Part shown: piece after piece, positions 2,576-31,600 of the stretch
How positions within the stretch are numbered: position 1 is the first letter of the stretch
Layout: each line of letters opens with the position of its first letter
Origin: Bacilli bacterium
GTDB lineage: Bacteria; Bacillota_I; Bacilli_A; RF39; UBA660
Length of the DNA stretch: 64,000 nucleotides
NCBI GenBank assembly: GCA_025992315.1
Contig: DAJPHG010000001.1
Location: 810,070 to 874,069 of the forward strand
Direction: 5' to 3'
Notes under the pieces: generated by a model
Told to the model about the DNA's origin: nothing
The model's input: only the letters and a program-made list of their open reading frames with translations
Database searches by the model: none
Position numbers and translations under genes: made by a program

Positions 2576-3872
2576 GAAATATATTATAGCTTTAGAAGAA
2601 TTTAATAAAAAATATCAAGATTTATATAATCATAAAGCTTTAAGAAAATATCGCAGAAATCAAAGAATAAAAGAAATGATTATACATGGCGAAATAAAAA
2701 ATTTATTTTTAAAAGCTTTTAAAAAATGCAAAAATAATAAAACAGAATTTTTAAAGCCTATTAAATATAATAATAAAATGGGTAAAAATGTAGTTTATAC
2801 GTGTATTTTAAATAATTATGACAGTTTATATGATCCATTAATTGAAAGTGAAAATACTGATTATATAGTATTTAGTGATAATCCTAATATTGCAATTAAT
2901 TCTAAATATTGGACTTTCAAACCAATTCCTAAAGCTATCTTAGAAAAATATAATAATAATCCTACACTGGTTAATAGATATTTAAAAATGCACCCTTATG
3001 AAGTATTTAAGGATTATGATTATTCTTTATATATAGATGGAACTATTGAGGTGGTTTCTGATATAAATGATTGTTTTAATTATATAAATAAAAAAACTGG
3101 TTTAGCTATGCATGATCATCGTAGTAGAAATGATGTTTATCAAGAAGCACAAGCATGTATAAAACAAAAAATTGGTAATAAAGAAAAAATAATTGAACTA
3201 ATGAATAAATATCAATTAGATGGATTTAAAGAAAATTACGGATTATTAGAAGCTACAGTTATAGCAAGTGATTTAAATAATCCTAAGTCAGTAGAATTGC
3301 TTGATTTATGGTATAAAGATTTTATAGAAAGTAAGTGTTTTAGAGATCAATTGGTATTACCATATATCTTGTATAAAAATAATTTAAAAATTAATGATGT
3401 TGGTATAATGGCACCTAATTTGAGTGTGAATTATAAATTTATTAGGCATATTCATATAAAAAGATATAATAACTGGTTTAGCAAAATAAAAGTTAGAATT
3501 ATTAATTTTGGCTTTAAATATAAGTGTGAAATATGTCATTCTCATTTAAATAAATATCTTAATAATGAGATATGTCCAGTTTGTAAAACTACTAAAGAAG
3601 AAAGAGAAGTATATAAATATTTAGAAAATAAAACTTTAAAAAATATATTAATTGTAAATGCAGATTTTAAAGTAACAACTTATAAGTTAAAGAAAAAAGG
3701 TGTTAGTGTAATTTGTATTAGTGATGATAAAATATCTAATTCTCAAAAATATGATTGTTTAATTTACAAAATAGAAAATAACAATCTAAAAAAATTGAAT
3801 AAATTATTTGATGAAAAAAACTATAATATTATTAAATTAGATGATAAAATATTTGTTATAGAGAAAAAATAA
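2556..3872 (+). CDS. Putative glycosyltransferase (DUF616/TOD1-like) with a C-terminal Cys4 zinc ribbon
   Basis: VYTCILNNYDSLYDP motif typical of DUF616; CEICH...CPVCK near the C-terminus. Confidence 0.3.
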   Translation: MITMMNKKYIIALEEFNKKYQDLYNHKALRKYRRNQRIKEMIIHGEIKNLFLKAFKKCKNNKTEFLKPIKYNNKMGKNVVYTCILNNYDSLYDPLIESENTDYIVFSDNPNIAINSKYWTFKPIPKAILEKYNNNPTLVNRYLKMHPYEVFKDYDYSLYIDGTIEVVSDINDCFNYINKKTGLAMHDHRSRNDVYQEAQACIKQKIGNKEKIIELMNKYQLDGFKENYGLLEATVIASDLNNPKSVELLDLWYKDFIESKCFRDQLVLPYILYKNNLKINDVGIMAPNLSVNYKFIRHIHIKRYNNWFSKIKVRIINFGFKYKCEICHSHLNKYLNNEICPVCKTTKEEREVYKYLENKTLKNILIVNADFKVTTYKLKKKGVSVICISDDKISNSQKYDCLIYKIENNNLKKLNKLFDEKNYNIIKLDDKIFVIEKK

Positions 3873-3884
3873 AGAGGTGTTTAG

Positions 3885-4568
3885 ATGGATCTTACAATAT
3901 TATTGCCTTGTTTAAATGAAGAAGAAACCTTAGATGAAACCATAAAAGAAATTAAAAGAGAATTAAAAAAAATTGATATAAAATCTGAAATTTTAGTTGT
4001 TGATAATGGAAGTTGTGATAATTCTATTAAAATTGCTAAAGAAAATGAGGTTAGAATTGTAAGAGAAAATTTAAAAGGCTATGGAAGTGCTTTATTAACT
4101 GGAATAAAAAATTCTCAAGGAAAATATATAATTTTTGGCGATTGTGATCGAAGTTATCATTTTGAAAATATAGAAGAATATTTAAGCAGTTTAGAACAAG
4201 GGTATGACATAGTTATTGGATCTCGTTATAAAGGAGTAATGGAAAAGGATTCCATGCCATTTTCACATAAATATTTAGGTACTCCAATTATTACTTTCTT
4301 AGGAAGAAAATTATATAAAGTATCTGTTAGTGATTTTAATTCAGGATTAAGAGGGGTAAATAAAGAAAAAATATTAAGTATAAATTTAAATTGTATGGGA
4401 ATGGAATTTGCTAGTGAAATGTTAATAAAAGGTGCAAAATGCAATTTGAAAATTAAAGAAATTCCAATAAATTTTTATAAAGATAAAAGAGGTAGAAAAC
4501 CTCATTTAAGAGCATTTAGAGATGGAATGAGACATCTAAAAATATTATTAAAGGAATTAAGAAAATGA
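3885..4568 (+). CDS. GT2 polyprenyl-phosphate glycosyltransferase (GtrB/CsbB/DPM1-like)
   Basis: LLPCLNEEETL...VVDNGSCDNS...GDCDRS GT2 motifs; about 227 aa, typical of this family. Confidence 0.65.
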   Translation: MDLTILLPCLNEEETLDETIKEIKRELKKIDIKSEILVVDNGSCDNSIKIAKENEVRIVRENLKGYGSALLTGIKNSQGKYIIFGDCDRSYHFENIEEYLSSLEQGYDIVIGSRYKGVMEKDSMPFSHKYLGTPIITFLGRKLYKVSVSDFNSGLRGVNKEKILSINLNCMGMEFASEMLIKGAKCNLKIKEIPINFYKDKRGRKPHLRAFRDGMRHLKILLKELRK

Positions 4569-19350: not shown

Positions 19351-19815
19351 ATGAAAAAGGAAAAATTTTTATCTGCTGTATATTTGATAATTAAAAATGA
19401 AAATGAAGATATTTTATTGCAAAGAAGACAAAATACTAAATTATGGCCTGGATTTTTAGCTTTACCTGCTGGTCATGTTGATGAAAAAGAAAATGCAATA
19501 GAAGCTTTAATAAGAGAAGTAAAGGAAGAACTTGGAATAGAAATATCAATAGATGATATTGTTGATACATTTGTTGTTAATAGGCGCAATAAATCTTTAT
19601 TACCATATTATGATATATATTTTGAAGTTAAAAACTATAAGGGACAAATAAGAATAAATGAACCCGATAAATGCTCTCAAATAGTATGGTGTAATATAAA
19701 TAATTTACCAGAAGATATGATAGATTATGAAATAGAAGCAATTAAAAATAATCAGCTAGGAATAAAATTTAGTGTTATTGATACTGATAATGAGAAAAAA
19801 TTAATATTAAAATGA
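19351..19815 (+). CDS. Nudix hydrolase
   Basis: Nudix box GHVDEKENAIEALIREVKEELGIE; TGGTATAAT extended -10 upstream. Confidence 0.7.
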   Translation: MKKEKFLSAVYLIIKNENEDILLQRRQNTKLWPGFLALPAGHVDEKENAIEALIREVKEELGIEISIDDIVDTFVVNRRNKSLLPYYDIYFEVKNYKGQIRINEPDKCSQIVWCNINNLPEDMIDYEIEAIKNNQLGIKFSVIDTDNEKKLILK

Positions 19816-19906
19816 TTCACTTAAAGAATCAATAAAAATTGGTGTTTCTATAATTGAAAATAGCTATAAAAAGTGATATAAAAATGTTAGAAAGGATGCT
19901 AATTTT

Positions 19907-20671
19907 ATGTTTTTAGAAAATAATTTTATAGGAAATAATACTGATATAATAGAAATAACTTCAAGTATTACAGTATCTTTAGCACTTAAAAAAGTTGGGA
20001 TTGATAATATAAAAGTACATTTACCATTTTCTTTTGATATTGGTAATTTAAAAGAAATGCAAGAATTTAAAAGAAATGAACTTAATAAATTTATATCTGG
20101 TGAAAAAATAGACTTTGATTTTACTGAATTATTTAATAAATTAAAAGAATATGTAAATAATGCTAAAAAAATAAGAGTGTGGTCAAGCTTATTTGATGCA
20201 GATGAATATTGTATGTTGCTTTTTATTTGTCATCATTTTAAAGATAAAGAAATAAGTGTAATTTTTGCAAGTGAAGGAAATATATGGTCAAGTTTTATAC
20301 TTCATAATAGTGAAGAAGAAATAAAACAATTAGAAAATAAAGAACATATATTAAAGGAATACGAGAAAGAAGAATTAGATAAAGAATGGAATGAAATAAT
20401 ATTATCAAATAAAGAACTTAGATATATGATAAATGGAAGTGTCAAATCAGTTGATTTAGATTATTTTGATAATAATATAATTGAAAGATTAAAATCATTA
20501 GGAAAAGTTAGTAAACGTGAATTTGTAATAAATTTAATGAGTAATTCTATTATTCCAAGATGTTGTTATGCTCAGTTTATTCAAGAATATTTTATTAATA
20601 GTTTAATTAGAAAAGACTTAATAAAAAGTGCTTTTGAAGATAATAAAGAAATGGTAGAAATTGTAAAGTAA
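19907..20671 (+). CDS. Hypothetical protein, DUF1835-like
   Basis: N-terminal ITSSITVSLALKKVG and IRVWSSLFDADEYCMLLFI resemble DUF1835/DUF3658 proteins; weak. Confidence 0.25.
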   Translation: MFLENNFIGNNTDIIEITSSITVSLALKKVGIDNIKVHLPFSFDIGNLKEMQEFKRNELNKFISGEKIDFDFTELFNKLKEYVNNAKKIRVWSSLFDADEYCMLLFICHHFKDKEISVIFASEGNIWSSFILHNSEEEIKQLENKEHILKEYEKEELDKEWNEIILSNKELRYMINGSVKSVDLDYFDNNIIERLKSLGKVSKREFVINLMSNSIIPRCCYAQFIQEYFINSLIRKDLIKSAFEDNKEMVEIVK

Positions 20672-20694
20672 ATTAATGTGTAAATAAAATTATA

Positions 20695-21045
20695 ATGAAA
20701 AAGAATAGCAAAAAACCATTTGTGTATGCAAAAGCAGCAGCAAATCTTCGTTTATCAAAAGAAGAATTTATTAATCAAAAAGAGTCTAATAGTATGACTA
20801 ATCAAAGACAAATTATAAATAACTATTTAAAAGAACATAAATAATATAAATTAGTTGATTATTATGTAGATGATGGATATACAGGAACTAATTTTGATAG
20901 ACCAGAATTTCAAAGAATGTTAGAAGACATTAAAAATAAAAAAATAGGGGTAATACATATGAATGAAAATAAAACTAATATAAACTGTTTGATAGGAAAT
21001 TATGCAACATATTTTGAAAAAAGCCATAAAATAAGGGTAAAATAG
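20695..21045 (+). pseudogene. Large serine recombinase, N-terminal catalytic-domain fragment; in-frame TAA at 20842, truncated after about 87 aa
   Basis: FVYAKAAANLRLSKEEFINQKESNSMTNQRQIINNYLKEHK*YKLVDYYVDDGYTGTNFDRPEFQRMLEDIKNKKIGVI matches the resolvase/large-serine-recombinase N-terminus (catalytic Ser in RLS). It then reads into sequence identical to the rbgA start (HMNENKTNIN). Confidence 0.55.
20928..20987 (+). repeat. Direct repeat copy A (att-like): 29 nt matching the rbgA 5' end plus about 30 nt shared with copy B
   Basis: ATTAAAAATAAAAAAATAGGGGTAATACATATGAATGAAAATAAAACTAATATAAACTG. Confidence 0.7.
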
Positions 21046-21175
21046 ACATTGAGTAATTACATTTTTTTAGTAAAAATTACATAAAATAGCGAAAAATACA
21101 CAAAAACGCCCTAAAAATGGCTAAGTATTTATAGGGTGGTGAATGGACGCAACACTTGATGGAAGAGGCGGTAAA

Positions 21176-21814
21176 ATGAAGAAAAAACTAAAAAGTACAT
21201 TTTCAGATTCATTAGGTTTATCGGATGATGTTATTGAAAGACGTTGTATTTGTCTATATCATGGTATAAGATTTGATGCTATTAATAGATTAGAATCTAT
21301 TTTTCAAACTGGTTATATATTACCAAGTAATAAAGTTAAAAGGGATTTTGTATCATATGATGGAACTGTTAAATATTTATATATAAGCAATGATAGTGAT
21401 GAAAATTGTAATATGGGAAAATATGTAAGTGTAATGCCATATGAGGATGATTTAGAATTTAAACTATTTGTTAGAGAAAATTTATTTTTTGCTATTAAAG
21501 AGACAATAAAAGCCTTTGAAACTACGCACGTTTCTTATGATGAATATTGTGATAAAAAAAATAAAGATGAATGTGATGATTATTATAGTTATGCTTTTAA
21601 TGAATATTTTGTTGAAAATGATATATCCTTAGATGATGTTATTTATATTGGAATAGATTCTAGCTACTTTAATGGCAATTATGATAAAATAGTTGAAGAT
21701 GTTATCAATTTAATTAATGTCTATGAAATAGATATACCTTTAGTTGATGAAAGAACAAATAGTGAAATTTACAGATTAAATAGTAAACAAATAATTAAAA
21801 ATAAAAGGAGGTAA
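21176..21814 (+). CDS. Hypothetical Cys/Asp-rich cytoplasmic protein carried between repeats A and B
   Basis: ORF with RBS GAGGCGG; no recognisable domain. Confidence 0.3.
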   Translation: MKKKLKSTFSDSLGLSDDVIERRCICLYHGIRFDAINRLESIFQTGYILPSNKVKRDFVSYDGTVKYLYISNDSDENCNMGKYVSVMPYEDDLEFKLFVRENLFFAIKETIKAFETTHVSYDEYCDKKNKDECDDYYSYAFNEYFVENDISLDDVIYIGIDSSYFNGNYDKIVEDVINLINVYEIDIPLVDERTNSEIYRLNSKQIIKNKRR

Positions 21815-21851
21815 TACTCATGAATGAAAATAAAACTAATATTAACTGGTA
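21793..21851 (+). repeat. Direct repeat copy B: 32 nt identical to the rbgA start, ending in a stop (MNENKTNINW*)
   Basis: ATTAAAAATAAAAGGAGGTAATACTCATGAATGAAAATAAAACTAATATTAACTGGTA. Confidence 0.7.
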
Positions 21852-22049
21852 AGTGGGGAGTTATGAAAAAACACTATTAAACCCTTGAAAATAAAGGAAA
21901 AAAATAAAACTACCTATTAAGAATATAGAAACTAACATAATTTTAAATGCCTTAATACAATTTAAAAATGATAAATTAAAACAGGGTATATATACAGAAC
22001 CTATTGATGAACTAATTTTAAAATTAAATAAAATTTATTAAACATATTT

Positions 22050-22080
22050 GAACTGATTAAAAATGGTCAGTTCTTTTTTT
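22050..22080 (+). terminator. Rho-independent terminator
   Basis: GAACTGA-ttaaaaatgg-TCAGTTC followed by TTTTTTT. Confidence 0.55.
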
Positions 22081-22151
22081 ATGCCAGAAATGGAATACAT
22101 AGCCATCTTATTAAATTAAGGCGGCTAAATTAAAAGAAAGGAGGTGAGAAT

Positions 22152-22373
22152 ATGCAAGAAAGTAAGCACAAGGTAATTGCAATCACAAATCAGAAAGGAG
22201 GAGTTGGTAGGACCACAACAACATTTAATCTTGGAGTAGCATTGGCTAAACAAGGGAAAAAAGTGTTAGTTGTAGATGTTGATCCTCAGAGTAATTTAAC
22301 TACTTTAAGGCTGAGTAAGTATGCTAATTGCAATTTTAAAATTAAGTATAGAAAAACTAATTCTATATACTAA
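22152..22373 (+). pseudogene. ParA/Soj-family partition ATPase, N-terminal fragment only (73 aa)
   Basis: [45 protein letters not shown] deviant Walker A, then unrelated sequence and a stop. Confidence 0.5.
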
Positions 22374-22430
22374 AATAAAAAAGGTTATTTCTAAAATAAA
22401 GAAATAGCCTTGATACATAATTAAATTATA

Positions 22431-22473
22431 TTACAAAATTGTAATATTGAGTAATATTAGAATGACGACTTAT
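22431..22473 (+). promoter_or_regulatory. Promoter/operator copy 1 (candidate response-regulator binding site) upstream of the mgt-RR-HK operon
   Basis: TTACAAAATTGTAATATTGAGTAATATTAGAATGACGACTTAT. Contains the palindrome TTACAAAATTGTAA. 40/43 nt identical to the copy at 25029. Confidence 0.5.
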
Positions 22474-22537
22474 ATGATAAAAAATGATAATATTATTGCA
22501 ATAAATTACTTTTTAGTAAAGAAGGGATTAGCATTAT

Positions 22538-23227
22538 ATGAAATTAGTTAAAAAGATTACAATAACAGTTTTATTAATATTTATTTGTATAGGAAGTTAT
22601 TTTATTTGTAGTGGTTATCAAATGTATAAGAATGCCATAAATAAAATGCCATTAAAGGATAAAATTACAACAATTAGGCAAAAAGAAGATTATACAAAAA
22701 TTGATGATATGCCTCAAATATATTTAAAAGCAGTTGTATCAGTTGAAGATCATAGATTTTACAAACATTTTGGGATAGATGTCATTTCTATTGGAAGAGC
22801 ATTTGTAAATGATATAAAAAAAATGAAATTTGTAGAGGGAGGAAGCACAATTACCCAACAACTAGCCAAGAATATCTATTTTACACAAGATAAGAAAATA
22901 GTAAGGAAAGTTGCAGAAATTTTTATGGCATTTAGCATAGAAAGTAACTCTAATAAGGATGAAATATTAGAATTATATTTGAATACTTCATATTTTGGCA
23001 ATGGATTTTATTCTGTTAAGTCAGCAAGTTTAGGTTATTTTAATAAATTACCAAAAGATATGAACGATAGTGAATCAATTATGCTAGCAGGAACCCTAAA
23101 TGCTCCGTCTTTATATAATCCAATTCAAAATAAAAATTTAGCAATTGAAAGACAGAGGCAAGTTATAAATAAAATGATTAAATATGGTAACCTAGATAAA
23201 GTTGAAGCAGAAAAAATTATAAAATAA
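22538..23227 (+). CDS. mgt: Monofunctional peptidoglycan glycosyltransferase (GT51 transglycosylase)
   Basis: VSVEDHRFYKHFGID, GGSTITQQLAKN, RKVAEIFMAFSIE, LELYLNTSYFG: the GT51 motifs; N-terminal TM anchor. Confidence 0.75.
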   Translation: MKLVKKITITVLLIFICIGSYFICSGYQMYKNAINKMPLKDKITTIRQKEDYTKIDDMPQIYLKAVVSVEDHRFYKHFGIDVISIGRAFVNDIKKMKFVEGGSTITQQLAKNIYFTQDKKIVRKVAEIFMAFSIESNSNKDEILELYLNTSYFGNGFYSVKSASLGYFNKLPKDMNDSESIMLAGTLNAPSLYNPIQNKNLAIERQRQVINKMIKYGNLDKVEAEKIIK

Positions 23228-23319
23228 TTATATTTAATTTTCTGAATTATTATAATTTAGAAAATTAAAGTGATATAATATGAATGATTAAAAAAGCAAA
23301 TTATGAAAGGAGACAAACT

Positions 23320-23982
23320 ATGAAAAAAATATTAATTATAGAAGATGAAAAAATTATCAGAAATGAGTTAAAATCTTTGTTAGAAAACTCAGGGTATGAA
23401 GTATTAATTATAGAAAAGTTTGATAATGTTAAAGAAAATATAAAAAATATGAAATTTGATTTAATTTTAATGGATATTAATTTACCTAATAAAAATGGTG
23501 AAATTTTATTAAAAGAAATTAGAAAAGAATCTAATGTTCCTATTATTATGGTTACGAGCAGAGTAGGAGAAGTAGATGAAGTTTTATCTATATCTTATGG
23601 TGCAGACGATTATATTACTAAGCCATATAATCCAACAATCTTATTATTGAGAATACAAAATATATTTAAACGAATGGATAATAATATGGACGACTTATTT
23701 TATGATAATATTAGTGTTAATCCACAAAAAGGAATATTGAAACAAGGTGAAAAGATATTAGAACTTACTAAAAATGAAATGATTATCTTTACATATCTTT
23801 TAAGTAATCGTGGTAGAATAGTAACTCGTGATGATTTAATGACTGATTTATGGAATAATAATGAATTTATAAATGACAACGCTCTAACAGTAAATATTAG
23901 TAGATTAAGAAATAAATTACAAAATTTTGGACTTGAAAATAGAATTGAAACAAGAAAAGGACAAGGGTATAAATTATTATGA
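23320..23982 (+). CDS. OmpR-family response regulator (BceR-like)
   Basis: Receiver domain ILIIEDE...LILMDINLP...; winged-helix C-terminus RIETRKGQGYKL. Confidence 0.85.
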   Translation: MKKILIIEDEKIIRNELKSLLENSGYEVLIIEKFDNVKENIKNMKFDLILMDINLPNKNGEILLKEIRKESNVPIIMVTSRVGEVDEVLSISYGADDYITKPYNPTILLLRIQNIFKRMDNNMDDLFYDNISVNPQKGILKQGEKILELTKNEMIIFTYLLSNRGRIVTRDDLMTDLWNNNEFINDNALTVNISRLRNKLQNFGLENRIETRKGQGYKLL

Positions 23983-24995
23983 GTTTTAAAAAATATTTAT
24001 TAGATAAAACAGTACAAATAACTGTGTCAATTGTTGGATTCATAATTGCTATTCTTATGTTAAACGCATTTAAAGTGGAAAATGATTTGAAAATAGCATT
24101 GACAATATTATTTTTTTTAGTTGCAACATTTAATATTATTTTTGATTATTTCAGGAAATACAAATTTTACAAAAAAATATTAAATAAGCTTGATAAGTTA
24201 GATAAAAAATATTTAATTTTAGAAATATTAAATAAGCCAAACTTTTATGATGGCAAAATTTTTTATCAAATTCTTTATGATATAAACAAGTCAATGATTG
24301 AAAATGTAAAAGAATATAATTTAAGTATTACCGATTTCAAGGAATATGTAGAAATGTGGATTCATGAAGTAAAGATTCCAGTAGCAAGTTTAACTTTATT
24401 AATTCATAACAACAAAAATATGTTTGATAAGAGATATATAGAACAAATTAGAAAGTTAGATAACTATATAGATCAAATTTTATATTTCGTTCGAAGCGAA
24501 AATGCCGAGAAAGATTATCTTATCAAAGAAATTGAATTGCAGAAGATTATCAAAGATGTTGCTTTAAAAAATAAAGATGACTTATTAGAAAACAAAGTTA
24601 ATCTTGAAGTTGATGTTCATAATGAAAAAGTTTTGACGGATTCGAAATGGTTAGAGTTTGTATTAAATCAGATTATAAACAATAGTATTAAATATAAAAA
24701 GAATAATAACGATCCAATAATAAAAATCAGTGTAAAAGATGAAAAAGATAAAGTATATCTAACTATTTGGGATAATGGAATAGGAATACCTAAAAACGAT
24801 ATAAAAAGAGTATTTGATAAATCTTTCACTGGTGAAAATGGTAGAATAATGGCAAAATCAACAGGTATGGGACTTTATATTGTCAAGAAATTATGCGATA
24901 AATTAGGACATAAGATAATTATTGAATCTGAAATACATAAATATACAAAAATTACAATTATCTTTTATAAAAATGATTTTTATAAAGTTGATTAA
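23979..24995 (+). CDS. Intramembrane-sensing histidine kinase (BceS-like)
   Basis: Two N-terminal TM helices with no extracellular domain; H-box and HATPase_c motifs (WDNGIGIP, GMGLYIVKKL). Confidence 0.8.
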   Translation: MSFKKYLLDKTVQITVSIVGFIIAILMLNAFKVENDLKIALTILFFLVATFNIIFDYFRKYKFYKKILNKLDKLDKKYLILEILNKPNFYDGKIFYQILYDINKSMIENVKEYNLSITDFKEYVEMWIHEVKIPVASLTLLIHNNKNMFDKRYIEQIRKLDNYIDQILYFVRSENAEKDYLIKEIELQKIIKDVALKNKDDLLENKVNLEVDVHNEKVLTDSKWLEFVLNQIINNSIKYKKNNNDPIIKISVKDEKDKVYLTIWDNGIGIPKNDIKRVFDKSFTGENGRIMAKSTGMGLYIVKKLCDKLGHKIIIESEIHKYTKITIIFYKNDFYKVD

Positions 24996-25028
24996 AGTTT
25001 ATGCAGATTTGGATACTAAAAATAAATA

Positions 25029-25071
25029 TTACAAAATTGTAATATTCTGTAATATTAGAATAACGACTAAT
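25029..25071 (+). promoter_or_regulatory. Promoter/operator copy 2 upstream of the BceAB-like ABC transporter
   Basis: TTACAAAATTGTAATATTCTGTAATATTAGAATAACGACTAAT; a second palindrome ATTACAATGTAAT lies just downstream. Confidence 0.5.
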
Positions 25072-25113
25072 CCTATCTTTTATATTACAATGTAATCAGA
25101 AAGGAGAAAGATT

Positions 25114-25881
25114 ATGGAAAATATCTTAAAAATTGATAAAATTGAAAAATATTATGGCAATAAATCTAGTCTTACAAAAGCAATTGATAACCTATCATTT
25201 GATGTTGAAAAGGGAGAATTTGTTGCAATAATGGGAGCAAGTGGCTCTGGAAAGACTACTCTTTTAAATTGTATATCTACAATTGATAAAGTTACATCTG
25301 GACATATTTATGTAGCAGGTAATGATATCACAAAATTAAGAGGAAATAGTCTAAATAAGTTTAGAAGGGAAGAGTTAGGTTTTATATTTCAAGATTTTAA
25401 TTTGCTTGATACTTTAACTGCTTATGAAAATATTGCTTTGGCACTTTCTATTCAAAACGTGAATTCGAGAGAAATTGATACAAGAATTAAAAAAGTTGCA
25501 AAAGAACTGGATATTGTTAATGTACTTAATAAATATCCATATCAAATGAGTGGAGGTCAAAAGCAAAGAGTCGCTAGTGCAAGAGCAATAATTACTAATC
25601 CAAAGTTAATTCTTGCTGATGAACCAACAGGTGCATTGGATTCAAAGTCAGCTAAAATGCTTTTAGAAAAATTTGATTATTTGAATAAAGAATTACAAGC
25701 AACAATTCTTATGGTGACACATGATGCGTTTACTGCAAGTTATTCTTCAAGAGTCATATTTATCAAAGATGGCAAAATTTTTAATGAAATAATTAAAGGA
25801 ACAAATTCTAGAAAAGAATTTTTTGATAAAATAATAGATGTTGTAACATTACTTGGTGGTGACTTAAACGATGCTCTTTAA
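25114..25881 (+). CDS. ABC ATP-binding protein, BceA/MacB-type
   Basis: GASGSGKTTLLN, MSGGQKQRVASARA, LILADEPTGALD. Confidence 0.85.
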   Translation: MENILKIDKIEKYYGNKSSLTKAIDNLSFDVEKGEFVAIMGASGSGKTTLLNCISTIDKVTSGHIYVAGNDITKLRGNSLNKFRREELGFIFQDFNLLDTLTAYENIALALSIQNVNSREIDTRIKKVAKELDIVNVLNKYPYQMSGGQKQRVASARAIITNPKLILADEPTGALDSKSAKMLLEKFDYLNKELQATILMVTHDAFTASYSSRVIFIKDGKIFNEIIKGTNSRKEFFDKIIDVVTLLGGDLNDAL

Positions 25882-27901
25882 GTTATCATTAAAAAATGTT
25901 AGTAAGAGTATAAAGGATTATGCCATCTATTTCTTTACTCTGATACTAGGTGTTGCAATTTTTTATGTGTTCAATGCAATAGATGATCAGTCAGTTATGA
26001 TGAAGGTATCATCAACAACAGCAGAAATAATAAAACTTATGACCAATGTTCTTTCTGGTGTTAGCGTGTTTGTATCTATAATATTAGCGTTTTTAATTGT
26101 TTATGCAAGTAGATTCTTAATAAAAAGAAGAAATAAAGAATTTGGAGTTTATTTAACGCTTGGAATGAGCAAAAAGAAAATATCCTTAATATTATTTATT
26201 GAAACATTAATAATAGGTATAGTTTCATTGGTAGTTGGTTTAGGAATAGGTTTTTTATTATCACAATTGATGAGTATTTTGGTTGCTAATATGTTTGAAG
26301 CAGATTTAACTAGATTTCAGTTCGTATTTTCAACAAATGCTTGTATTAAAACTTTGATTTATTTTGGTATTATGTATTTTGTAGTTATGATATTTAATAC
26401 TATAAATATTAGTAAATGTAAATTGATAGATTTAATGCATTCTAATAAAAAATCTGAAAAAATAAAATTAAAAAATCCATTGTTCTGTACAATAGTGTTT
26501 ATTATTTCTTGCATAGCACTAGGATTTGCTTATTATCAGGTTACTGGTGGCATTGAGAAAATGACTAATGCAAATAGTATTTTTGTTCCTATAGGAGTAG
26601 GTGCTATTTCAACTTTCTTTGTGTTTTGGTCTTTATCGGGCTTGCTTTTAAAAATATTTATAAGTATGAAGAACACCTATTATAAAGGGTTAAATAGTTT
26701 CACCCTTAGACAGTTTTCAAGTAAAATAAATACTATGACTTTTTCTATGACAATAATATGTTTGATGTTATTTATAACGATTTGTGTACTATCAAGTGCT
26801 TTGTCAATGAAGAATTCTTTAAATAAAAATGTGGTAGAATTTTCTCCAAGGGATATAGAAATTTCAAAACCTGCAAATGTTGATTTAGAAGTTAATGATT
26901 TTACTGATAAACAAATAGAAAATTATAAATTAAGTTTTGAAGAAATTTTTACAAAGAATGGATTTGATTTTAAAAAATTTAAAAATATAGTTTATTTTTC
27001 TTTGTATGCTGATGATTATGTTACTTTAAAGTCTACATTAGGAACTTATTATAAAACTGCAAAGAAAAATTATCCTTTTTTAAGATATGATGATTATATT
27101 GTTTTAATGAAAAATAGTGACTATAATAACTTAGCTAATAATTTTAATTTAGAAAAAATCAATTTAAATAGTGATCAATATGCTGTTGTCGGGAACTATA
27201 AAGAAATGATTGATATTAAGAATGAAGCTTTAAAAAGAAATACAGAGATTATAGTTAATCAAAAAATATATTTACCAAAATATAAAAAAGCAATTAATGG
27301 TTTTTATGAAATGGGTAGTCAAAAGTCAGAGATTGGGTTTATTGTTTTACCAGATGATGCTTTAAATGAAAATCAAAAGATATCTAACAAAATGGTTGCT
27401 GATTATAATGGAAATCAAGATGATATAGAGAAAGATGTTACTTCATTTTTAAATAATACTAGTAAATACATCATAACATTTAATACTAAGAAAGATATAA
27501 GATATGCAAGTGTTGGACTTGGTGCTATTGTTACATTTTTAGGTTTGTATCTTGGAATTATATTTTTGATATCGTGTGCTGCTATTTTAGCTTTAAAAGA
27601 ATTATCAGAGTCAAGTGACAATGTAGAAAAATTTGTTGTGTTAAGAAAAATTGGTGTAGATGAACAAGAATTAAATAAAGCTCTTTTTAAACAAATTGGA
27701 ATATTTTTTATGTTTCCACTTATACTAGCTATAATTCATTCAATATTTGGTGTTATGTTTTGTAATAATATTTTAAAAACAATGGGTGTTAGTTTTAATT
27801 TAAAATCAGTTATAATAACATCTTTGTTTATAATATTTATATATGGAGGTTATTTCTTTATAACTTATATATGTAGTAAAAATATAATTAAGGAAAAATA
27901 A
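25871..27901 (+). CDS. FtsX-family ABC permease, BceB-type (10 TM, large extracellular loop)
   Basis: 676 aa; N- and C-terminal FtsX 4-helix bundles flanking an extracytoplasmic domain of about 200 aa; start overlaps the ATPase stop. Confidence 0.8.
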   Translation: MLFKLSLKNVSKSIKDYAIYFFTLILGVAIFYVFNAIDDQSVMMKVSSTTAEIIKLMTNVLSGVSVFVSIILAFLIVYASRFLIKRRNKEFGVYLTLGMSKKKISLILFIETLIIGIVSLVVGLGIGFLLSQLMSILVANMFEADLTRFQFVFSTNACIKTLIYFGIMYFVVMIFNTINISKCKLIDLMHSNKKSEKIKLKNPLFCTIVFIISCIALGFAYYQVTGGIEKMTNANSIFVPIGVGAISTFFVFWSLSGLLLKIFISMKNTYYKGLNSFTLRQFSSKINTMTFSMTIICLMLFITICVLSSALSMKNSLNKNVVEFSPRDIEISKPANVDLEVNDFTDKQIENYKLSFEEIFTKNGFDFKKFKNIVYFSLYADDYVTLKSTLGTYYKTAKKNYPFLRYDDYIVLMKNSDYNNLANNFNLEKINLNSDQYAVVGNYKEMIDIKNEALKRNTEIIVNQKIYLPKYKKAINGFYEMGSQKSEIGFIVLPDDALNENQKISNKMVADYNGNQDDIEKDVTSFLNNTSKYIITFNTKKDIRYASVGLGAIVTFLGLYLGIIFLISCAAILALKELSESSDNVEKFVVLRKIGVDEQELNKALFKQIGIFFMFPLILAIIHSIFGVMFCNNILKTMGVSFNLKSVIITSLFIIFIYGGYFFITYICSKNIIKEK

Positions 27902-27921
27902 TATATCTTATAAAACGATAA

Positions 27922-27948
27922 AAGAGGCTATTACAAGCCTCTTATTTT
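27922..27948. terminator. Bidirectional rho-independent terminator between bceB-like and the convergent XRE gene
   Basis: AAGAGGCT-attaca-AGCCTCTT with T-tracts on both strands. Confidence 0.6.
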
Positions 27949-28186
27949 AATACTCCAATTTCTCCATATCAAATAATGGAGAGTCATAAAAATCTTTAAG
28001 TTCTATTTTTAAAGTTTTACATATTTTAAAGATAATTGTAGAACTTGGATTATCTACATTGTTTGCCAGTAATGCTCTTAATGTTGATGGTGCAATAGCA
28101 GATAATTCAGCAAGTTTATTTGGAGTGTAATTATATTTGTTACATAATTCAAGTATTCTTAAAGTAATTGCTTCTTTAAATAACAT
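27947..28186 (-). CDS. XRE-family helix-turn-helix transcriptional regulator
   Basis: LRILELCNKYNYTPNKLAELSAIAPSTLRALL HTH_3-like. Confidence 0.6.
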   Translation of the reverse strand: MLFKEAITLRILELCNKYNYTPNKLAELSAIAPSTLRALLANNVDNPSSTIIFKICKTLKIELKDFYDSPLFDMEKLEY

Positions 28187-28406
28187 TTTAAAAACTTCCT
28201 TAACACTACAAAAATTCTAGTGGAAATCGGTTGAAATTATACGCCGATACCGGTTGGCTTTTGGAGGCTATAATGTCAATGTAGTTAGATAAAAATATGA
28301 AATTTATAATTGATTAAGCAGTACGAAAGGATTATAAAAGTTTTTTTGTATTGCTTTTTTTATCAAAAAATGATGGTAATAAATGGATTTAAAGAAGTAG
28401 TAAGAA

Positions 28407-28718
28407 ATGTTTGAAGAATTATTAATATCAGTACTATTTATTATTGTTTTAATTATTTTGTGCATAATTTCTAATTTGTATTCAAAAAAGGAAGAAGAAA
28501 AAGAAACAATAAAAAATAACGATACTGATTGGATGAATATATTTAAAAAGAAAGAAAAAATAAATGAACTAAATAGATTATTGATAGATGAGTTAATTGA
28601 AGATATTGTTGTTAGTGAAGATGGTAATATAAAAGTAATATTCAAATATGAAGATAAATATTTTGAGGCACTATACTTTATAAACAGACAAAACTATGAT
28701 ATAATATTATCCAGTTAA
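28407..28718 (+). CDS. Small hypothetical protein; its C-terminal half resembles the DUF4368 tail of large serine recombinases
   Basis: LLIDELIEDIVVSEDGNIKVIFKYED; N-terminal hydrophobic helix. Confidence 0.2.
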   Translation: MFEELLISVLFIIVLIILCIISNLYSKKEEEKETIKNNDTDWMNIFKKKEKINELNRLLIDELIEDIVVSEDGNIKVIFKYEDKYFEALYFINRQNYDIILSS

Positions 28719-29110
28719 AGGGCGAAATTAGAAAATACTTTTTTAAGTATTTTTTTAAAATAAAGAGAAATAGAAAGAAGTGAAAAAAATGGATATGTAT
28801 CAAAAAAGAAAAATCAGGGCTGAAATGAAAAATAACAATCAAGAAGAAAAGTTAACTAAAGTCGGAATTAACTGGTTGATTACGATTTATCCAAGAATAG
28901 GAGAAAACTCCGATAAAATAAATGATTGTGAGATTTAATATCTTGCATGTTTAATATAAAAAATGATAAAATAGACAAAAAATCATAAAAAATGATTATT
29001 TTTAATGCAAAAAGTAGTAGGAATTAGTAAGGTGATTACGCCACCTAATAATAAAAAATATGGTATTAAATATGACATAATACTTAGCAAAAAGGTAGGT
29101 GAATGATATT

Positions 29111-30118
29111 ATGAAAACAGATATTTTATATTTAAATAATACACCATATGAAAATGGTAAATTATCAGGTGAATATTTTAGGAAAAATGTCATTATTAAT
29201 TTAGAGGAAATTAATAATGTGCTATTAAATAACGACATTAAAAACCAAATTGTTAGCCAACTTGATAATTTGAAAAATGAATATCCAAAATATTATGATG
29301 AAACAATAGGAAAAGCAGATGGTTTAGGAATTGATAGATTAACTTATTTTGCCATCATGTGTCCTGAAATTATTGATATAAAATTTGAACATTGTACAAC
29401 AATTATGTGTAAAAAGGGTAATGGTAGTTTTATAATTTCGCATAATGAAGATGGCGATTATATTGAAGGAAATTTTTGCTTAAGTAAAGTAAAAATAGAT
29501 AATGATAATTGGTTTCTTACAAATGATATGTACAATATGCCATTTGGCAATGGTATTAGTTGGAATAGCTATGGAATAGTTAAAACTATTAATTATTGTC
29601 ATGATGATAATGTTGATATTAAAAATCATCCAAGATATTTTTTACAAAGACATATATCTGAAGCAAGGTCAATTGACGATTTAATTAAAAGATGTAAAGA
29701 AATGAAAGTTGCATCAGGTTTTCATGTTAATGCAATAGATATTAATAATAATGTAGCAGTTTCTATCGAAGTATATTCAGATAGTATTGATGTTGAATAT
29801 ATAGATGATTATTATGTACATTCTAATCATTTTATTCATAAAGATTATTTGCTTAATCAAGTAACTGATAAAGGAAGTAATAGCATATTTAGATTAAACA
29901 AATGTAATGAACAATTAAAATACAAAACAATGAATGAAATTAAAACAATATTATCTTATAGATCAAAAGAAAACAAGTTTGAAAATTCAATATTACAAAC
30001 AAAAGAAGATCCATATATGACATTATTTAATTTTTCCTTTGATACAGATAATAAAAATAAAATATATTTGAATAATTATATAAATAGTGAAATAATTGAG
30101 TTAAAATATGATTTATAA
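29111..30118 (+). CDS. Peptidase C45 / acyl-CoA:6-APA acyltransferase-like Ntn hydrolase (putative)
   Basis: EHCTTIMCKKGNGSFIISHNEDGD resembles the Cys-nucleophile/NED region of C45 and choloylglycine-hydrolase-like proteins. Confidence 0.3.
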   Translation: MKTDILYLNNTPYENGKLSGEYFRKNVIINLEEINNVLLNNDIKNQIVSQLDNLKNEYPKYYDETIGKADGLGIDRLTYFAIMCPEIIDIKFEHCTTIMCKKGNGSFIISHNEDGDYIEGNFCLSKVKIDNDNWFLTNDMYNMPFGNGISWNSYGIVKTINYCHDDNVDIKNHPRYFLQRHISEARSIDDLIKRCKEMKVASGFHVNAIDINNNVAVSIEVYSDSIDVEYIDDYYVHSNHFIHKDYLLNQVTDKGSNSIFRLNKCNEQLKYKTMNEIKTILSYRSKENKFENSILQTKEDPYMTLFNFSFDTDNKNKIYLNNYINSEIIELKYDL

Positions 30119-30134
30119 AAGGAGTTGATCTCTA

Positions 30135-30166
30135 ATGAATGAAAATAAAACTAATATTAACTGGTA
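30135..30166 (+). repeat. Repeat copy C: the native 5' end of rbgA, the presumptive attachment site
   Basis: ATGAATGAAAATAAAACTAATATTAACTGGTA identical to copy B over 32 nt. Confidence 0.7.
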
Positions 30167-30998
30167 TCCAGGTCATATGGCTAAAACTAAAAGACTAATA
30201 AAGGAAAAGTATAATTTAATAGATGTAGTTTATGAATTAGTTGATGCAAGAATACCTTTTTCATCTAAAATACAGGATATTGATGAAATATTAAAAAATA
30301 AACCTAGAATATTAATTATGACTAAAAAAGATCTATGTGATGTTAATGAAACTAATAAATGGGTTAAATATTATGAAGGTAAAGGTTATAAAGTTTTACT
30401 TTTAGATTTAAATAATAATGAAGATTATAAAAAATTAATTGATGAAACTAACATAATAATGGAAGATAGCCAAAAGATAAGAGAACAAAAAGGATTAAAA
30501 GAAAAAGAGATTAGAGCTTTAGTTATTGGGGTGCCTAATGTAGGGAAAAGTACTTTGATAAATAAGCTTGCTGGTAAAAAAATAGCTAACGTTGGAAATA
30601 AGCCAGGAGTTACAACAAATCTTACTTGGTTAAAAACTAAAAGTAATATACTTTTATTAGATACGCCGGGTATTTTATGGCCTAAATTTGATAGTGAAGA
30701 AATCGCTTTAAATTTAGCTAGTATGACATCAATTAAATCAGAAGTTTTACCCATAGATGAAGTAGCAGTTCATATTTTAAAAAAATTAGATTTATTTTAT
30801 AAAGATATTTTGAAAAAAAGATATAATTTAGATTATTTAGATGAAGACTTAGTTGTAGTTTATGATAGCATTGGACGTAAGATTGGTGCTATAATAAGTG
30901 GTGGAGATATAGATTACGATCGTGTTAGTAATGCTATTTTAAATGATATTAAACAAGAATATGTTAAGGGAATTACTTTTGATAGAATAGAGGATTAA
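30135..30998 (+). CDS. rbgA: Ribosome biogenesis GTPase A (YlqF/RbgA)
   Basis: NWYPGHMAK, circularly permuted GTPase motifs GVPNVGKSTLINKL and LDTPGIL. Confidence 0.85.
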   Translation: MNENKTNINWYPGHMAKTKRLIKEKYNLIDVVYELVDARIPFSSKIQDIDEILKNKPRILIMTKKDLCDVNETNKWVKYYEGKGYKVLLLDLNNNEDYKKLIDETNIIMEDSQKIREQKGLKEKEIRALVIGVPNVGKSTLINKLAGKKIANVGNKPGVTTNLTWLKTKSNILLLDTPGILWPKFDSEEIALNLASMTSIKSEVLPIDEVAVHILKKLDLFYKDILKKRYNLDYLDEDLVVVYDSIGRKIGAIISGGDIDYDRVSNAILNDIKQEYVKGITFDRIED

Positions 30999-31000
30999 CT

Positions 31001-31600
31001 ATGAATATAGCTCAAATTGATAATTTACTAGAAGAAAAATTAGTTTATTCAGAATTTTTAAGTGCAACTAATCGTCAAAAAATGTGCGAAATTATTTTTA
31101 ATTATTGCACTAATAAAAGAGTTAGTATGACTATACTGTCATATAGATTAGAGGAAACTATTATTTTTTTACAAGAATTGGATTTAACTCTTGAAGAGAT
31201 TACATCAGCAATAAAAAATAGTCCTTCATTATTACATGCGAATAAAAAGGATATGTTATCTAAATATTTAGTATTAGTATATTTAGATGAGCATTTAAAT
31301 CAACCAATAAGAAAACAAACATTGATTGAAAATACAAAATATTATGTTATAGGTTTATCTACTATATATGCTAGAATTATGTATTTGCAAGAACATAATC
31401 CTAATGAAATATCAAAGTGGCATGTTTTAAAAATGACTAATAAAGAATTTGAAACTAAATTTAATGTAAATACTGATCAATTAAAATTAGATTATCCATT
31501 TGATGATCAAGCATTTATGCACGTTTTAGACCATCCTGACAATGAAGAGATAAAAAATAAAATATTTGTATCATCTAGATCAGGAGGGTATCATGCCTGA
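31001..31600 (+). CDS. Hypothetical protein
   Basis: 199-aa ORF between rbgA and rnhB; no recognised motif. Confidence 0.3.

Follow-up and report, generated by a model that had tools for sequence, protein, structure and literature searches.

How did the start of one gene come to be repeated through an island of accessory genes? The gene is rbgA, which encodes a ribosome-assembly GTPase and is essential in Bacillus subtilis. In the window (the whole 64,000-nucleotide stretch of Bacilli DNA analysed here), a pattern search finds the exact sequence ATGAATGAAAATAAAACTAATAT at 20959, 21820 and 30135, each time on the + strand, and three matches were reached in 0 of 100 shuffles. Copies 2 and 3 of this start have 32 nt in common, through ...AACTGGTA; copy 1 has two mismatches. 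A first-pass annotation had already noticed the three copies and had read them as one decayed serine-recombinase element that targets the start codon region, leaving attL/attR cores and a stray third copy. Its view of the repeats as recombination junctions at the rbgA 5′ end, of serine recombinases as the associated enzymes and of the contents as accessory stands. Its count of elements and its target do not: we consider it probable (about 0.8) that 20695-30166 consists of four or more units stacked in tandem, integrated site-specifically at one point, the TG of rbgA codon Trp-10.

Junctions at codon 10 of rbgA

The central TG dinucleotides of four junctions lie at 20986, 21847, 28873 and 30162, all on the + strand; the junction at 28873 had been missed.

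20959-21036, +, junction 1: orphan rbgA start (MNENKTNIN-), TG 20986-20987, type-I-like right arm TTTGATAGGAAATTAT...GCCATAAAATAAGG
21820-21897, +, junction 2: orphan rbgA start MNENKTNINW*, TG 21847-21848, right arm GTAAGTGGGGAGTTATGAAAAAACAC...CCCTTGAAAATAAAGG
28867-28921, +, junction 3: TG 28873-28874, then a perfect type-I right arm GTTGATTACGATTTATCCAAGAATAGGAGAAAACTCCGATAAAAT
30135-30998, +, rbgA: Pfam MMR_HSR1/RsgA, with its 5′ 28 nt supplied by unit 3

The junctions differ in their arms, with three distinct right arms and three variants of the left arm; right-arm half-sites in general fall into several subtypes. Junction 1 has the exact 23-nt repeat and matches a site model (nhmmer E 3e-11 and 1e-11 in two runs), and the right-arm subtype of junction 2 recurs in another species, L048, where it lies 5′ of a RhuM gene (91% over 69 nt). 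The right arm of junction 3 matches AACTGGTTGATTACGATTTAT at 21/21 positions (nhmmer E 1e-6) and, together with a leader of ~190 nt, is 83-86% identical to cassettes of four other loci (L013, L033, L038 and L070). Its left arm differs from the other copies (MDMYQKRK...GINW, in an ORF at 28780-28938), and by eye its left and right halves are mirror-like at 9/12 positions. No junction can be recognised at the left end of the array, where a recombinase pseudogene begins 24 nt after the DUF1835 gene.

The recombination point in rbgA itself is TG 30162-30163, in codon Trp-10 and within the conserved I-N-W-Y-P-G-H-M coding sequence. The start codon is not where homology breaks; the break is at codon 10/11 (AAC-TGG-T). 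Between strains of the species the breakpoints fall at 30155-30167 and the sequence is identical from ~30164 on, which by sequence comparison narrows the exchange to AACTGGTA, 30159-30166; the TG is the likely crossover dinucleotide. The N-terminus of RbgA varies between strains, and every insertion swaps the ribosome-binding site, start codon and N-terminus of this GTPase.

Units of the array

20695-20958, +, unit 0 remnant: ~87 N-terminal codons of a short-type large serine recombinase (LSR), pseudogene
20988-21848, +, unit 1 (861 bp): right arm and leader, ORF 21143-21814, left arm with AGGAGG and rbgA start
21849-28874, +, unit 2 (7.0 kb, composite, decayed), annotated by Pfam and tblastn
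22050-22073, unit 2, terminator-like hairpin
22152-22373, unit 2, ParA N-terminal fragment
22538-23227, unit 2, intact monofunctional transglycosylase (Pfam Transgly E 6e-60)
23284-23982, unit 2, BceR-like
23979-24995, unit 2, BceS-like
25114-25881, unit 2, BceA-like
25871-27901, unit 2, BceB-like
27947-28186, -, unit 2, XRE
28407-28718, unit 2, long-type LSR C-terminal remnant (tblastn to the LSR of L060)
28776-28874, unit 2, left arm, encoding MDMYQKRK...GINW
28875-30163, +, unit 3 (1.29 kb): right arm and conserved leader 28875-29098, hydrolase 29099-30118, left arm

The array thus comprises the unit 0 remnant, a cassette with a 223-aa ORF (21143-21814, which has no Pfam, NCBIfam or PADLOC match), a 7-kb Bce/transglycosylase unit and a C45 cassette. 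It is unable to move by itself because both LSR genes have been destroyed by deletion in the source strain, and the earlier statement that the recombinase is dead holds for the array as a whole. The transglycosylase had been passed over as a protein-fragment region. From its domains, the cargo of unit 2 also includes a predicted Bce-type peptide-antibiotic resistance module, with a BceA ATPase, an FtsX-type permease, an OmpR-type regulator and a kinase; the Bce type is further defined by a large extracellular loop in BceB and a kinase of the intramembrane-sensing type. The domains, assigned by Pfam in identical genes of L086 and L095, are ABC_tran (255 aa), FtsX (676 aa), Response_reg with Trans_reg_C, and HATPase_c. 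A repeated ATTACAAAATTGTAAT box stands 5′ of both bceA and the transglycosylase gene. The left arm of unit 2 matches an N-terminal extension of RbgA in L050, L101 and L096. In unit 3, the C45-like hydrolase proposed earlier is confirmed as a member of the C45/AAT family (Pfam AAT E 8.5e-27; NCBIfam C45_proenzyme 122 bits, cut-off 85), and the left arm (AAGGAG, ATG 30135, MNENKTNINW) now provides the start of rbgA.

The units follow a common plan. Each begins with a conserved right-arm half-site for recombination, about 22-50 nt long (for example GTTGATTACGATTTAT..CCTTATAAATAAAGG). Behind it lie a leader of roughly 150 nt with possible promoter activity (a promoter scan did no better than shuffles) and cargo that is nearly always on the rbgA strand. 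The unit closes with a left arm, in which a ribosome-binding site and an ATG precede 9-30 surrogate N-terminal codons, the last of which encode I-N-W. On integration, the incoming left arm would replace the rbgA 5′ end, and the displaced end would stay upstream as a short orphan ORF. The rbgA-adjacent junction would remain usable, so that units pile up with the newest closest to rbgA. LSRs, encoded at the right end of some units, probably catalyse integration, and cassettes without a recombinase are presumably mobilised in trans.

Recombinase remnants

Two remnants of LSR genes remain in the window. The frame at 20695-21045 matches positions 5-69 of the 145 of Pfam Resolvase (PF00239; E 6e-10), with an in-frame TAA at 20842-20844, as the first-pass annotation had it. 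Within 20695-20958 the R-x-S serine motif is present (...NLRLSKEE...YVDDGYTGTNFDRPEFQRM), and the translation is 83% identical in amino acids to the LSR of L050 (tblastn, residues 3-79 of the LSR against 11-87 of the pseudogene). At the DNA level it is 87-90% identical to the intact LSR genes of L050 and L101, with homology reaching 20960-20966. The frame breaks off near residue 87, at the point where the left arm with the rbgA start takes over, and is fused by deletion to this left arm of junction 1. No Recombinase (PF07508) and zinc-ribbon (PF13408) domains follow the catalytic domain of 20695-20958 in an intact frame; it is a pseudogene fragment and cannot encode an active enzyme. It is kept in all conspecific contigs.

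The segment at 28407-28718, suspected earlier of being a recombinase C-terminal remnant, matches residues 469-520 of the L060 LSR (tblastn E 1.8e-8, 48% identity). It scores 20 bits against Pfam DUF4368, the tail of clostridial-type LSRs, under the cut-off of 25, and on the tblastn match we accept it as a true LSR remnant at the level of sequence. A 123-nt indel within it varies between strains. Judged by their closest matches, the N- and C-terminal remnants derive from two LSR genes, one of the short L050/L101 type and one of the long L060 type.

Variation within the species

Conspecific loci are 98.2-99.1% identical downstream, and the sequence to the right of AACTGGT is constant. Strains of the species retain the units of the window, except that L100 is without unit 1, its junction-1 core being joined directly to 21911. 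Some have gained extra units exactly at the rbgA-proximal point, carrying GNAT, YhcG, HD or UDG-LSR-RhuM genes. In L095, L096, L097 and L101 the hydrolase gene keeps the left arm of unit 3, which abuts foreign right arms; beyond it come one or several new units and then rbgA, which has gained a new N-terminus. Intact LSRs are present in L094, L098 and L101. Because other strains carry extra units at the rbgA-proximal junction, some with intact LSRs, this junction appears from the sequence comparison to be active within the species. The island had been thought fixed, which is true of the old units in the source strain and not of the species. No conspecific contig examined has the empty site that had been predicted, in which DUF1835 would adjoin rbgA directly, and relatives with the same 9 kb and no repeat were not seen either.

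The hotspot in related species

The hotspot recurs in many uncultured low-GC gut Bacilli. Apart from the sites in rbgA itself, the site model matches 48 others, distributed over 29 of 80 loci from related species; its hits (80 in all) are every one on the + strand, with 47 upstream of rbgA and 0 downstream. Units across the related loci are 306-3416 bp long (median about 1.2 kb), plus one of 9.4 kb, and the longest arrays elsewhere have seven sites, in L013. The units have spread horizontally, with 88-97% nucleotide identity between hosts whose RbgA proteins are just 55-58% identical in amino acids. Most carry no recombinase. LSR genes or remnants are physically associated with the site: 11 of the 80 loci have them upstream of rbgA at a distance of no more than 2.5 kb, in seven of these they end within about 150 nt of the rbgA start, and L029 and L057 each have two LSRs in tandem.

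The simplest arrangement is that of L060, a single 9.3-kb unit whose attL bears the native MNENKTNIN start and whose LSR adjoins rbgA. It is the sole locus with conjugation-like cargo (ParB, sortase and adhesin). Its attL and attR have no long repeat in common. In the reconstructed attP, GTTTCaAaAAAcCGTAATCAAt-TG-GTTGATTACGaTTTaTaGAAAC, 18/22 positions match in a dyad around the TG, a score reached at just 18 of 1.2 million background positions (1.5e-5). The site is an imperfect inverted repeat whose central dinucleotide is not palindromic, as in serine-recombinase att sites.

What made the junctions

One decayed element at the rbgA start, with two repeats as attL/attR cores and the third as a duplicate, would account for the presence of a recombinase N-terminus, a C-terminal remnant and repeats. 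That reading is unlikely, since it is contradicted by four junctions with three right arms and three left-arm variants, by remnants of two different LSR types, by conspecific strains that gain or lack single units at individual junctions, and by the arrays of up to 7 sites in other species. About equally doubtful is the idea that a tyrosine recombinase, or another enzyme encoded elsewhere, made the junctions and that the LSRs are passengers. Streptococcal ICEs do hit the rbgA 5′ end with tyrosine integrases, and the direct repeats they leave behind overlap sequence upstream of the gene (PMC4701971); islands formed by tyrosine integrases typically have long identical left arms, and the majority of the cassettes here have no recombinase. 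Crude checks, however, found no tyrosine recombinase in the inserted DNA. Precomputed Pfam lists gave no Phage_integrase in the inserted segments (one rve-type IS gene occurs, in L094), a census of 54 cargo proteins gave no recombinase domain other than LSR among 25 families listed, and a regex gave 0 tyrosine-recombinase box-II motifs in 446 upstream ORFs. By contrast, both conspecific strains and 11 related species have LSRs in a fixed place, the unit right end beside the left arm, and the attP of the LSR-bearing unit in L060, a near-perfect inverted repeat with a 2-nt centre, has the signature of a serine recombinase.

Duplication of the rbgA 5′ end by homologous or illegitimate recombination, with foreign DNA inserted later between the copies, would need no site-specific enzyme. 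Microhomology deletions are clearly present in the region, and L030 has a 72-nt perfect direct repeat that extends 47 nt beyond the usual breakpoint. Such a process is very improbable given that dozens of junctions across species share the same breakpoint, that right arms of 50-190 nt are conserved beside unrelated cargo, and that the same units occur in distant hosts invariably at this point of rbgA. Serial site-specific integration of separate units is the reading carried forward here.

Comparison with known systems

The streptococcal ICEs share with the rbgA arrays the gene, its 5′ end and direct repeats into the upstream region, and some of their insertions alter upstream sequence, promoter included (PMC4701971). 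They are large conjugative elements with tyrosine integrases and reportedly leave the protein N-terminus unchanged (PMC4701971), whereas the arrays have LSRs, mostly small units and a changed N-terminus; the tyrosine integrase with conjugation module that defines those elements (PMC4701971) is not found in them. Canonical LSR phages and elements (attP x attB, 2-nt crossover, RDF-controlled excision) are a good match for L060, with its single unit, LSR at one end and palindromic attP. Canonical systems destroy attB and form no arrays (PMC3783163); here the rbgA-adjacent junction is used again, and native-like left arms are frequent at internal junctions. Most internal junctions are attL-like, with a native-like left half and an element right half. 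Since canonical serine integrases recombine attP x attB only (PMC3783163), repeated integration at such junctions needs relaxed (SCC-like) site use or a further step, and so does moving a cassette whose terminal left arm is native-like.

Integron arrays resemble the rbgA arrays in their co-oriented, mostly single-gene cassettes at one site, newest beside the fixed site, in the recombination site that each cassette brings and in the lack of a nearby recombinase in some arrays. Regex and Pfam lists gave neither motif nor domain of an IntI-type tyrosine recombinase in the rbgA arrays. Their sites are rbgA-start/right-arm junctions and not, as far as examined, attC-type imperfect hairpins; their cassettes carry their own leader, and a housekeeping gene, at its coding start, serves as the platform. 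A tentative reading, to which we give somewhat less than even odds, is that the rbgA start is the serine-recombinase counterpart of an integron platform, serially capturing cassettes with a surrogate ribosome-binding site and RbgA N-terminus. The left half-site would be the chromosomal one, so that the target is regenerated; integration and excision would be one reaction without a directionality factor, and single or paired LSRs of other units would shuffle recombinase-free cassettes in trans. If true, this would be a previously undescribed route around serine-integrase directionality, with a major flow of accessory and candidate defence genes among uncultured gut Bacilli.

The nearest analogue is the SCC composite island. 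SCC/SCCmec at rlmH and the enterococcal cassette chromosome likewise use LSRs at one fixed site in a conserved housekeeping gene, whose end is restored by the element, and have short direct repeats because element and chromosomal sites share a half-site (PMC11470126, PMC6222049). They also grow by tandem or nested accretion, with recombinase-less units beside recombinase-bearing ones and some tandem LSR pairs, and carry resistance and candidate anti-phage genes (PMC11470126, PMC6222049). As in SCC, the rbgA units are bounded by integration-site repeats, stand in tandem (four co-oriented junctions in the window, seven in L013) and include recombinase-less members. The two differ in target, recombinases and unit size. 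SCC enters the 3′ end of rlmH (orfX), and here the target is the 5′ end of rbgA, at codon 10; unlike SCC, the rbgA units are mostly single-gene, about 1.2 kb long and each provided with a conserved leader, in uncultured low-GC gut Bacilli. SCC carries ccrA/ccrB/ccrC, while the LSRs here are not Ccr: those of L098, L101 and L029 score 53-112 bits against NCBIfam CcrA/B/C, where the cut-offs are 700-900.

The array at the rbgA start

The window carries one allele of a polymorphic hotspot at which multiple units have accreted. In the first-pass annotation it was read as a single decayed serine-recombinase element, with repeats of the rbgA start as its attL and attR cores. Serine-recombinase junctions do lie at the 5′ end of rbgA, and no live recombinase is left in this array, but the single-element architecture is wrong: there are four junctions, and the units vary among strains. 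The triplication of the rbgA start holds, with 23 nt (ATGAATGAAAATAAAACTAATAT) found exactly at 20959, 21820 and 30135, all on the + strand (three matches in 0/100 shuffles). Copies 2 and 3 are identical over 32 nt, up to and including AACTGGTA, and copy 1 differs by two changes. A fourth junction, at TG 28873, has a different left arm. There a leader peptide (28780-28938, MDMYQKRK...GINW) like that of the related-species locus L050 reads past its Trp codon into TGATTACGATTTATCC... instead of into rbgA. Each junction is placed at the TG of the rbgA Trp-10 codon, and a unit comprises a right arm, a leader, cargo and a left arm with the RBS and surrogate first codons of RbgA.

Order of features in the window array (LSR, large serine recombinase)
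20695-20958: LSR N-terminal remnant
TG 20986: junction 1
Between junctions 1 and 2: unit 1, a 223-aa ORF without a family match
TG 21847: junction 2
Unit 2: ParA fragment, transglycosylase, BceRS-AB-like module, XRE regulator, LSR C-terminal remnant, MDMYQ-type left arm
TG 28873: junction 3
Between junctions 3 and 4: unit 3, C45 hydrolase
TG 30162: junction 4, continuous with rbgA

The product of the ORF at 20695 is indeed a catalytic domain of the resolvase type, matching Pfam PF00239 (E 6e-10) over profile positions 5-69. A TAA interrupts the frame at 20842, and the likeness to recombinases ends at about residue 87, at the start of copy 1. Upstream of 20959 the window has no match to the site model or to the core, and a 15-nt match at 5775, considered as an extra junction, was rejected as low-complexity. 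The contents of the island are as first listed, except that 22538-23227, taken for protein fragments, is an intact monofunctional transglycosylase gene. A 46-nt direct repeat (22428-22473 and 25026-25071, 91% identical) holds the inverted repeat ATTACAAAATTGTAAT; one copy lies upstream of the transglycosylase gene and the other upstream of bceA. We take this repeat to resemble a BceR-type regulator box, which would put the transglycosylase in the regulon of the ABC transporter. The window DNA, that of an uncultured gut bacterium of the Bacilli, is about 23% G+C. Compared with 185,579 species representatives, its RbgA reaches 72% identity at best, in MAGs labelled Bacilli, Erysipelotrichaceae or Candidatus Coprovivens.

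Gain and loss among strains

The mTERF-like protein encoded downstream of rbgA occurs in 601 blocks of the assembly collection, and ten long conspecific contigs (L094-L103) were retrieved through it. Downstream of rbgA all ten (10/10) match the window at 98.2-99.1% identity; upstream they differ as follows.

Arrangements next to rbgA in conspecific contigs
L099, L100, L102, L103: the arrangement of the window
L097: GNAT cassette between the C45 unit and rbgA
L095: YhcG/DUF1016 cassette, RhuM debris, GNAT cassette
L096: RhuM debris and an HD-domain gene
L101: UDG gene, intact 397-aa LSR, RhuM unit
L094, L098: a tandem pair of intact LSR genes (566-569 and 522-530 aa) directly ahead of rbgA

In L095, L096, L097 and L101 the left arm of window unit 3 (...AAAAGGAGTTGATCTCTAATGAATGAAAATAAAACTAATATTAACTGGT) is kept and fused to a foreign right arm, and rbgA is unchanged from ATCCAGGTCATATGG on, preceded by the left arm of the incoming unit, so that RbgA now begins MNDNKININW, ...KSLPSTGINW or ...SFPSVGINW. 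Homology of these strains to the window on the left and on the right overlaps only at AACTGGTA, 30159-30166. The alignments thus show site-specific insertion at a single point, with units added one after another beside rbgA. The RbgA N-terminus of L098 is different again (MSNTNENQSVAKTNINW), and both L098 and L094 carry at least 9 kb of unrelated DNA upstream. In both two-LSR elements a DUF6870 gene (88-89 aa; L098 5489-5755, L094 5448-5717) lies directly upstream of the LSR pair, and its product is a candidate accessory or directionality factor.

The distal part of the array is the older one. The stretch from gmk through the NUDIX and DUF1835 genes, the LSR remnant and unit 1 to the start of unit 2 recurs unchanged in conspecific contigs found through DUF1835; contigs found through NUDIX share the flank up to the LSR remnant, and some diverge beyond it. 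An empty site, which the first-pass annotation had expected in related genomes, was not found in the species by look-ups with RbgA, the mTERF-like protein, NUDIX, DUF1835 or the 223-aa ORF. The C45 protein as delimited here, from a GTG start, is not on record. For the mTERF-like gene itself (31001-31600, between rbgA and rnhB) the Pfam mTERF match is marginal, at 23.5 bits where the cut-off is 23.1. Hundreds of conspecific assemblies have the gene with 100% conservation, but in related species it is poorly conserved or absent.

Several independent short-read contigs (L001, L083, L085, L090-L092) stop precisely at one of two places, junction 2 or the ATG of rbgA. This is expected if the 32-nt repeats break short-read (de Bruijn) assemblies at these junctions, as they appear to do, and MAGs probably contain fewer such arrays than exist. 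L100 and L114 lie on the same contig (1,175,918 bp), whose two ends flank the DUF1835-rbgA interval, a layout that points to a very small genome, nearly complete, in which the interval spans roughly 40 kb. In the strain of L098 and L109, the NUDIX and rbgA loci are about 75 kb apart on one contig.

Arms, leaders and a census of sites

In L050, an LSR gene and a RhuM-like gene lie directly upstream of rbgA, and RbgA has an N-terminal extension (MDMYQKREMRKNKK...STSINW-YPGHM). Each related locus was searched with the 22 nt that lead up to the breakpoint in its own rbgA. Extra copies were present in 16 loci, always on the rbgA strand and always ending ...AAYTGGT, and past each copy came a conserved right arm that is not rbgA sequence: type I (TGATTACGATTTAT..CCTTATAAATAAAGG), type II (ATAAACCGACTTATGGAAAAC..CTTATAAAT) or further subtypes. 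A site profile built from these copies recovered all four window junctions and found 48 non-rbgA sites in 29 of 80 related-species loci (23/46 among those with at least 2 kb upstream), an undercount because other arm types, such as that of the L044 site, are missed. All matches are on the + strand, 47 upstream of rbgA and 0 downstream. Sites are 306-3416 bp apart (median 1189), with one 9.4-kb unit besides.

Past the right arm, a leader is conserved for about 190 nt ahead of unrelated cargo genes. Following type-I arms it is 83-86% identical among these copies:

Leaders after type-I right arms
Window: 28875-29098
L013: 6306-6545
L033: 7909-8150
L038: 2444-2680
L070: 8296-8428

The leader has an invariant core (window 29029-29052, AAGGTGATTACGCCACCTAATAAT) and an invariant Shine-Dalgarno-like AGGTG that could pair with CACCT 7 nt downstream, and it repeats TGATTACG of the recombination arm. 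An Rfam scan of 19800-30400 at E<=1 gave no match, so the conserved arms and leaders belong to no known RNA family. Promoter evidence was set aside, as promoter-like sites are no commoner than in shuffles of this AT-rich DNA. Carriage by phages was considered and set aside: the type-I arm occurs in one IMG/VR contig only.

Two variants of the rbgA start were also seen. L030, from a CAG-433-like species, has a single beta-lactamase-like gene between two identical 72-nt direct copies of the rbgA start (2864-2935 and 3836-3907; compare L026 2596-2670); the repeat extends 47 nt past the usual breakpoint and does not fit a TG crossover. In L005 (3259), L049, L052 and L072, I-N-W-F-PGHM (TGGTTTCC) replaces W-Y, so that the right half-site in the chromosome begins with other bases, a change that may influence which subtypes of right arm can integrate.

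Recombinases and the crossover

Eleven related loci (L014, L017, L018, L020, L029, L043, L044, L050, L057, L060 and L064) have LSR genes or remnants a short way upstream of rbgA. The LSR ends no more than about 150 nt from the rbgA start in 7/11; other cassette genes intervene in L050 and L057, and L029 and L057 have two LSRs each. A clean single element is found in L060.

The L060 element
attL, 659-733: native MNENKTNIN start joined to a type-I arm
Interior: 9.3 kb of cargo (ParB, adhesin, sortase, others), then the LSR
Right end: left arm encoding MSNINENEKFQKTVINW, then rbgA

It is established that serine-recombinase sites are marked by an inverted repeat about a non-palindromic dinucleotide (PMC3783163). 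Joining the ends of L060 rebuilds an attP, GTTTCaAaAAAcCGTAATCAAt-TG-GTTGATTACGaTTTaTaGAAAC (also written GTTTCAAAAAACCGTAATCAAT-TG-GTTGATTACGATTTATAGAAAC), whose dyad has 18/22 matches and the Trp-codon TG at its centre. Such a score is reached at only 18 of 1.2 million locus positions, and those listed resemble terminator hairpins. Junction 3 is likewise mirror-like by eye (9/12). In an alignment of 51 internal sites the TG is 94% conserved, and the two positions after it (68% and 84%) vary with right-arm subtype (GT, TT, AT, TG). Because the dyad centres on TG, and TG is conserved while the next two positions vary by arm, we infer that TG is the crossover; positions 3-4 would then be part of the right arms. 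A GT crossover, with a TGGT core and the TGTT of junction 1 as an inactivating mutation, was dropped because the L060 dyad centres on TG.

No tyrosine recombinase was found in inserted DNA by three imperfect checks: a regex search of 446 ORFs, the precomputed Pfam lists of conspecific inserts, and the 25 families listed in a census of 54 cargo proteins. The LSRs are of a generic type: their NCBIfam scores for CcrA/B/C and XisF fall far short of the cut-offs, and the solved proteins nearest to them are TnpX and SPbeta SprA. Together with their roughly 46-bp palindromic site, the LSRs are candidate tools for genome engineering.

Cargo and horizontal spread

The units have spread horizontally between hosts. 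In L101, the LSR-RhuM unit is 88-92% identical in nucleotides to L050, the RhuM part is 96% identical to L022, and the UDG part shares 96.6-96.9% identity with L043 and L044, the homology starting at the crossover; the RbgA proteins of hosts sharing such units are only 55-58% identical. Nearly all cargo ORFs (68/73) are on the rbgA strand. Their products include RhuM (21 copies in 18 loci), Bro-N, ASCH, GNAT, deaminases, YhcG and KilA-N. Two of these, RhuM and YhcG, have PADLOC matches, to PDC-S05 and PDC-S02 respectively, both of them candidate anti-phage defence families. A peptide-antibiotic resistance module is also part of the cargo.

Comparison with known systems

The ancestral neighbourhood of the gene is rplS-lepB-rbgA-rnhB, which is tight in Bacillus, Paenibacillus, Sporolactobacillus and L066 and widened by 2-9 kb in most gut lineages. 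rbgA is essential in Bacillus subtilis, and a target inside it is unusual in that each insertion rewrites the translation start and N-terminus. Streptococcal ICEs target the same 5′ end with tyrosine integrases, reportedly leaving the N-terminus unchanged (PMC4701971); these were the only reports found in the literature on rbgA/ylqF with serine recombinases, cassettes or hotspots, and no account of the present arrangement was found there. The SCC region at rlmH is the best functional analogue. The two have in common serine recombinases, one fixed site within a housekeeping gene, defence cargo, direct repeats from a common half-site, and nested or tandem cassettes, some without a recombinase (PMC11470126). 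Its defining features, the ccr genes and the rlmH target, are absent here, and the rbgA array differs in lying at a 5′ end, swapping the N-terminus and consisting for the most part of single-gene cassettes, each of which has a leader.

Canonical serine integrases recombine attP with attB only (PMC3783163). This rule leaves unexplained the reuse of junctions after integration and the movement of cassettes ending in a host-like left half-site, and the arrays therefore challenge textbook directionality. They also define an exact site of gene capture, widely shared among uncultured gut bacteria with small genomes, a group for which descriptions of mobile elements are scarce.

Decay and traffic

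The two recombinase remnants of the window come from different LSR genes, since the N-terminal one is of the short type (~395 aa, as in L050 and L101; 87-90% nucleotide identity) and the C-terminal one is a long-type tail (L060 ...IKIDFKYIDQYNEAIRYL; window ...IKVIFKYEDKYFEALYF). The N-terminal remnant meets the left arm of junction 1 where gene and arm are alike (ATTAAAAATAAAA..GGTAATAC), which fits joining by a microhomology deletion. An independent event of the same kind is found in L043 and L044, where LSR codon ~41 is fused to the RhuM C-terminus via a shared IDNFLNE.

Strains also differ by further decay and insertion: a 123-nt indel varies in the C-terminal remnant, an element sits in the kinase gene at 24381, and L100 has lost unit 1, with the junction-1 core CTG joined to 21911. 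In some, a large, unrelated LSR transposon lies inside the N-terminal pseudogene at 20898 (L109, L110 and L114 from 11528; L100 to 939). It follows ...AATTTTGAT, has terminal inverted repeats GAGGTAAGATAACGATAC with TTTTGAT at both ends, and encodes, on the other strand, a 558-aa LSR of the DUF4368 type; its serine-recombinase system is distinct from that of the rbgA junctions. Throughout, the left arm is always kept, as expected because it carries the current rbgA translation start.
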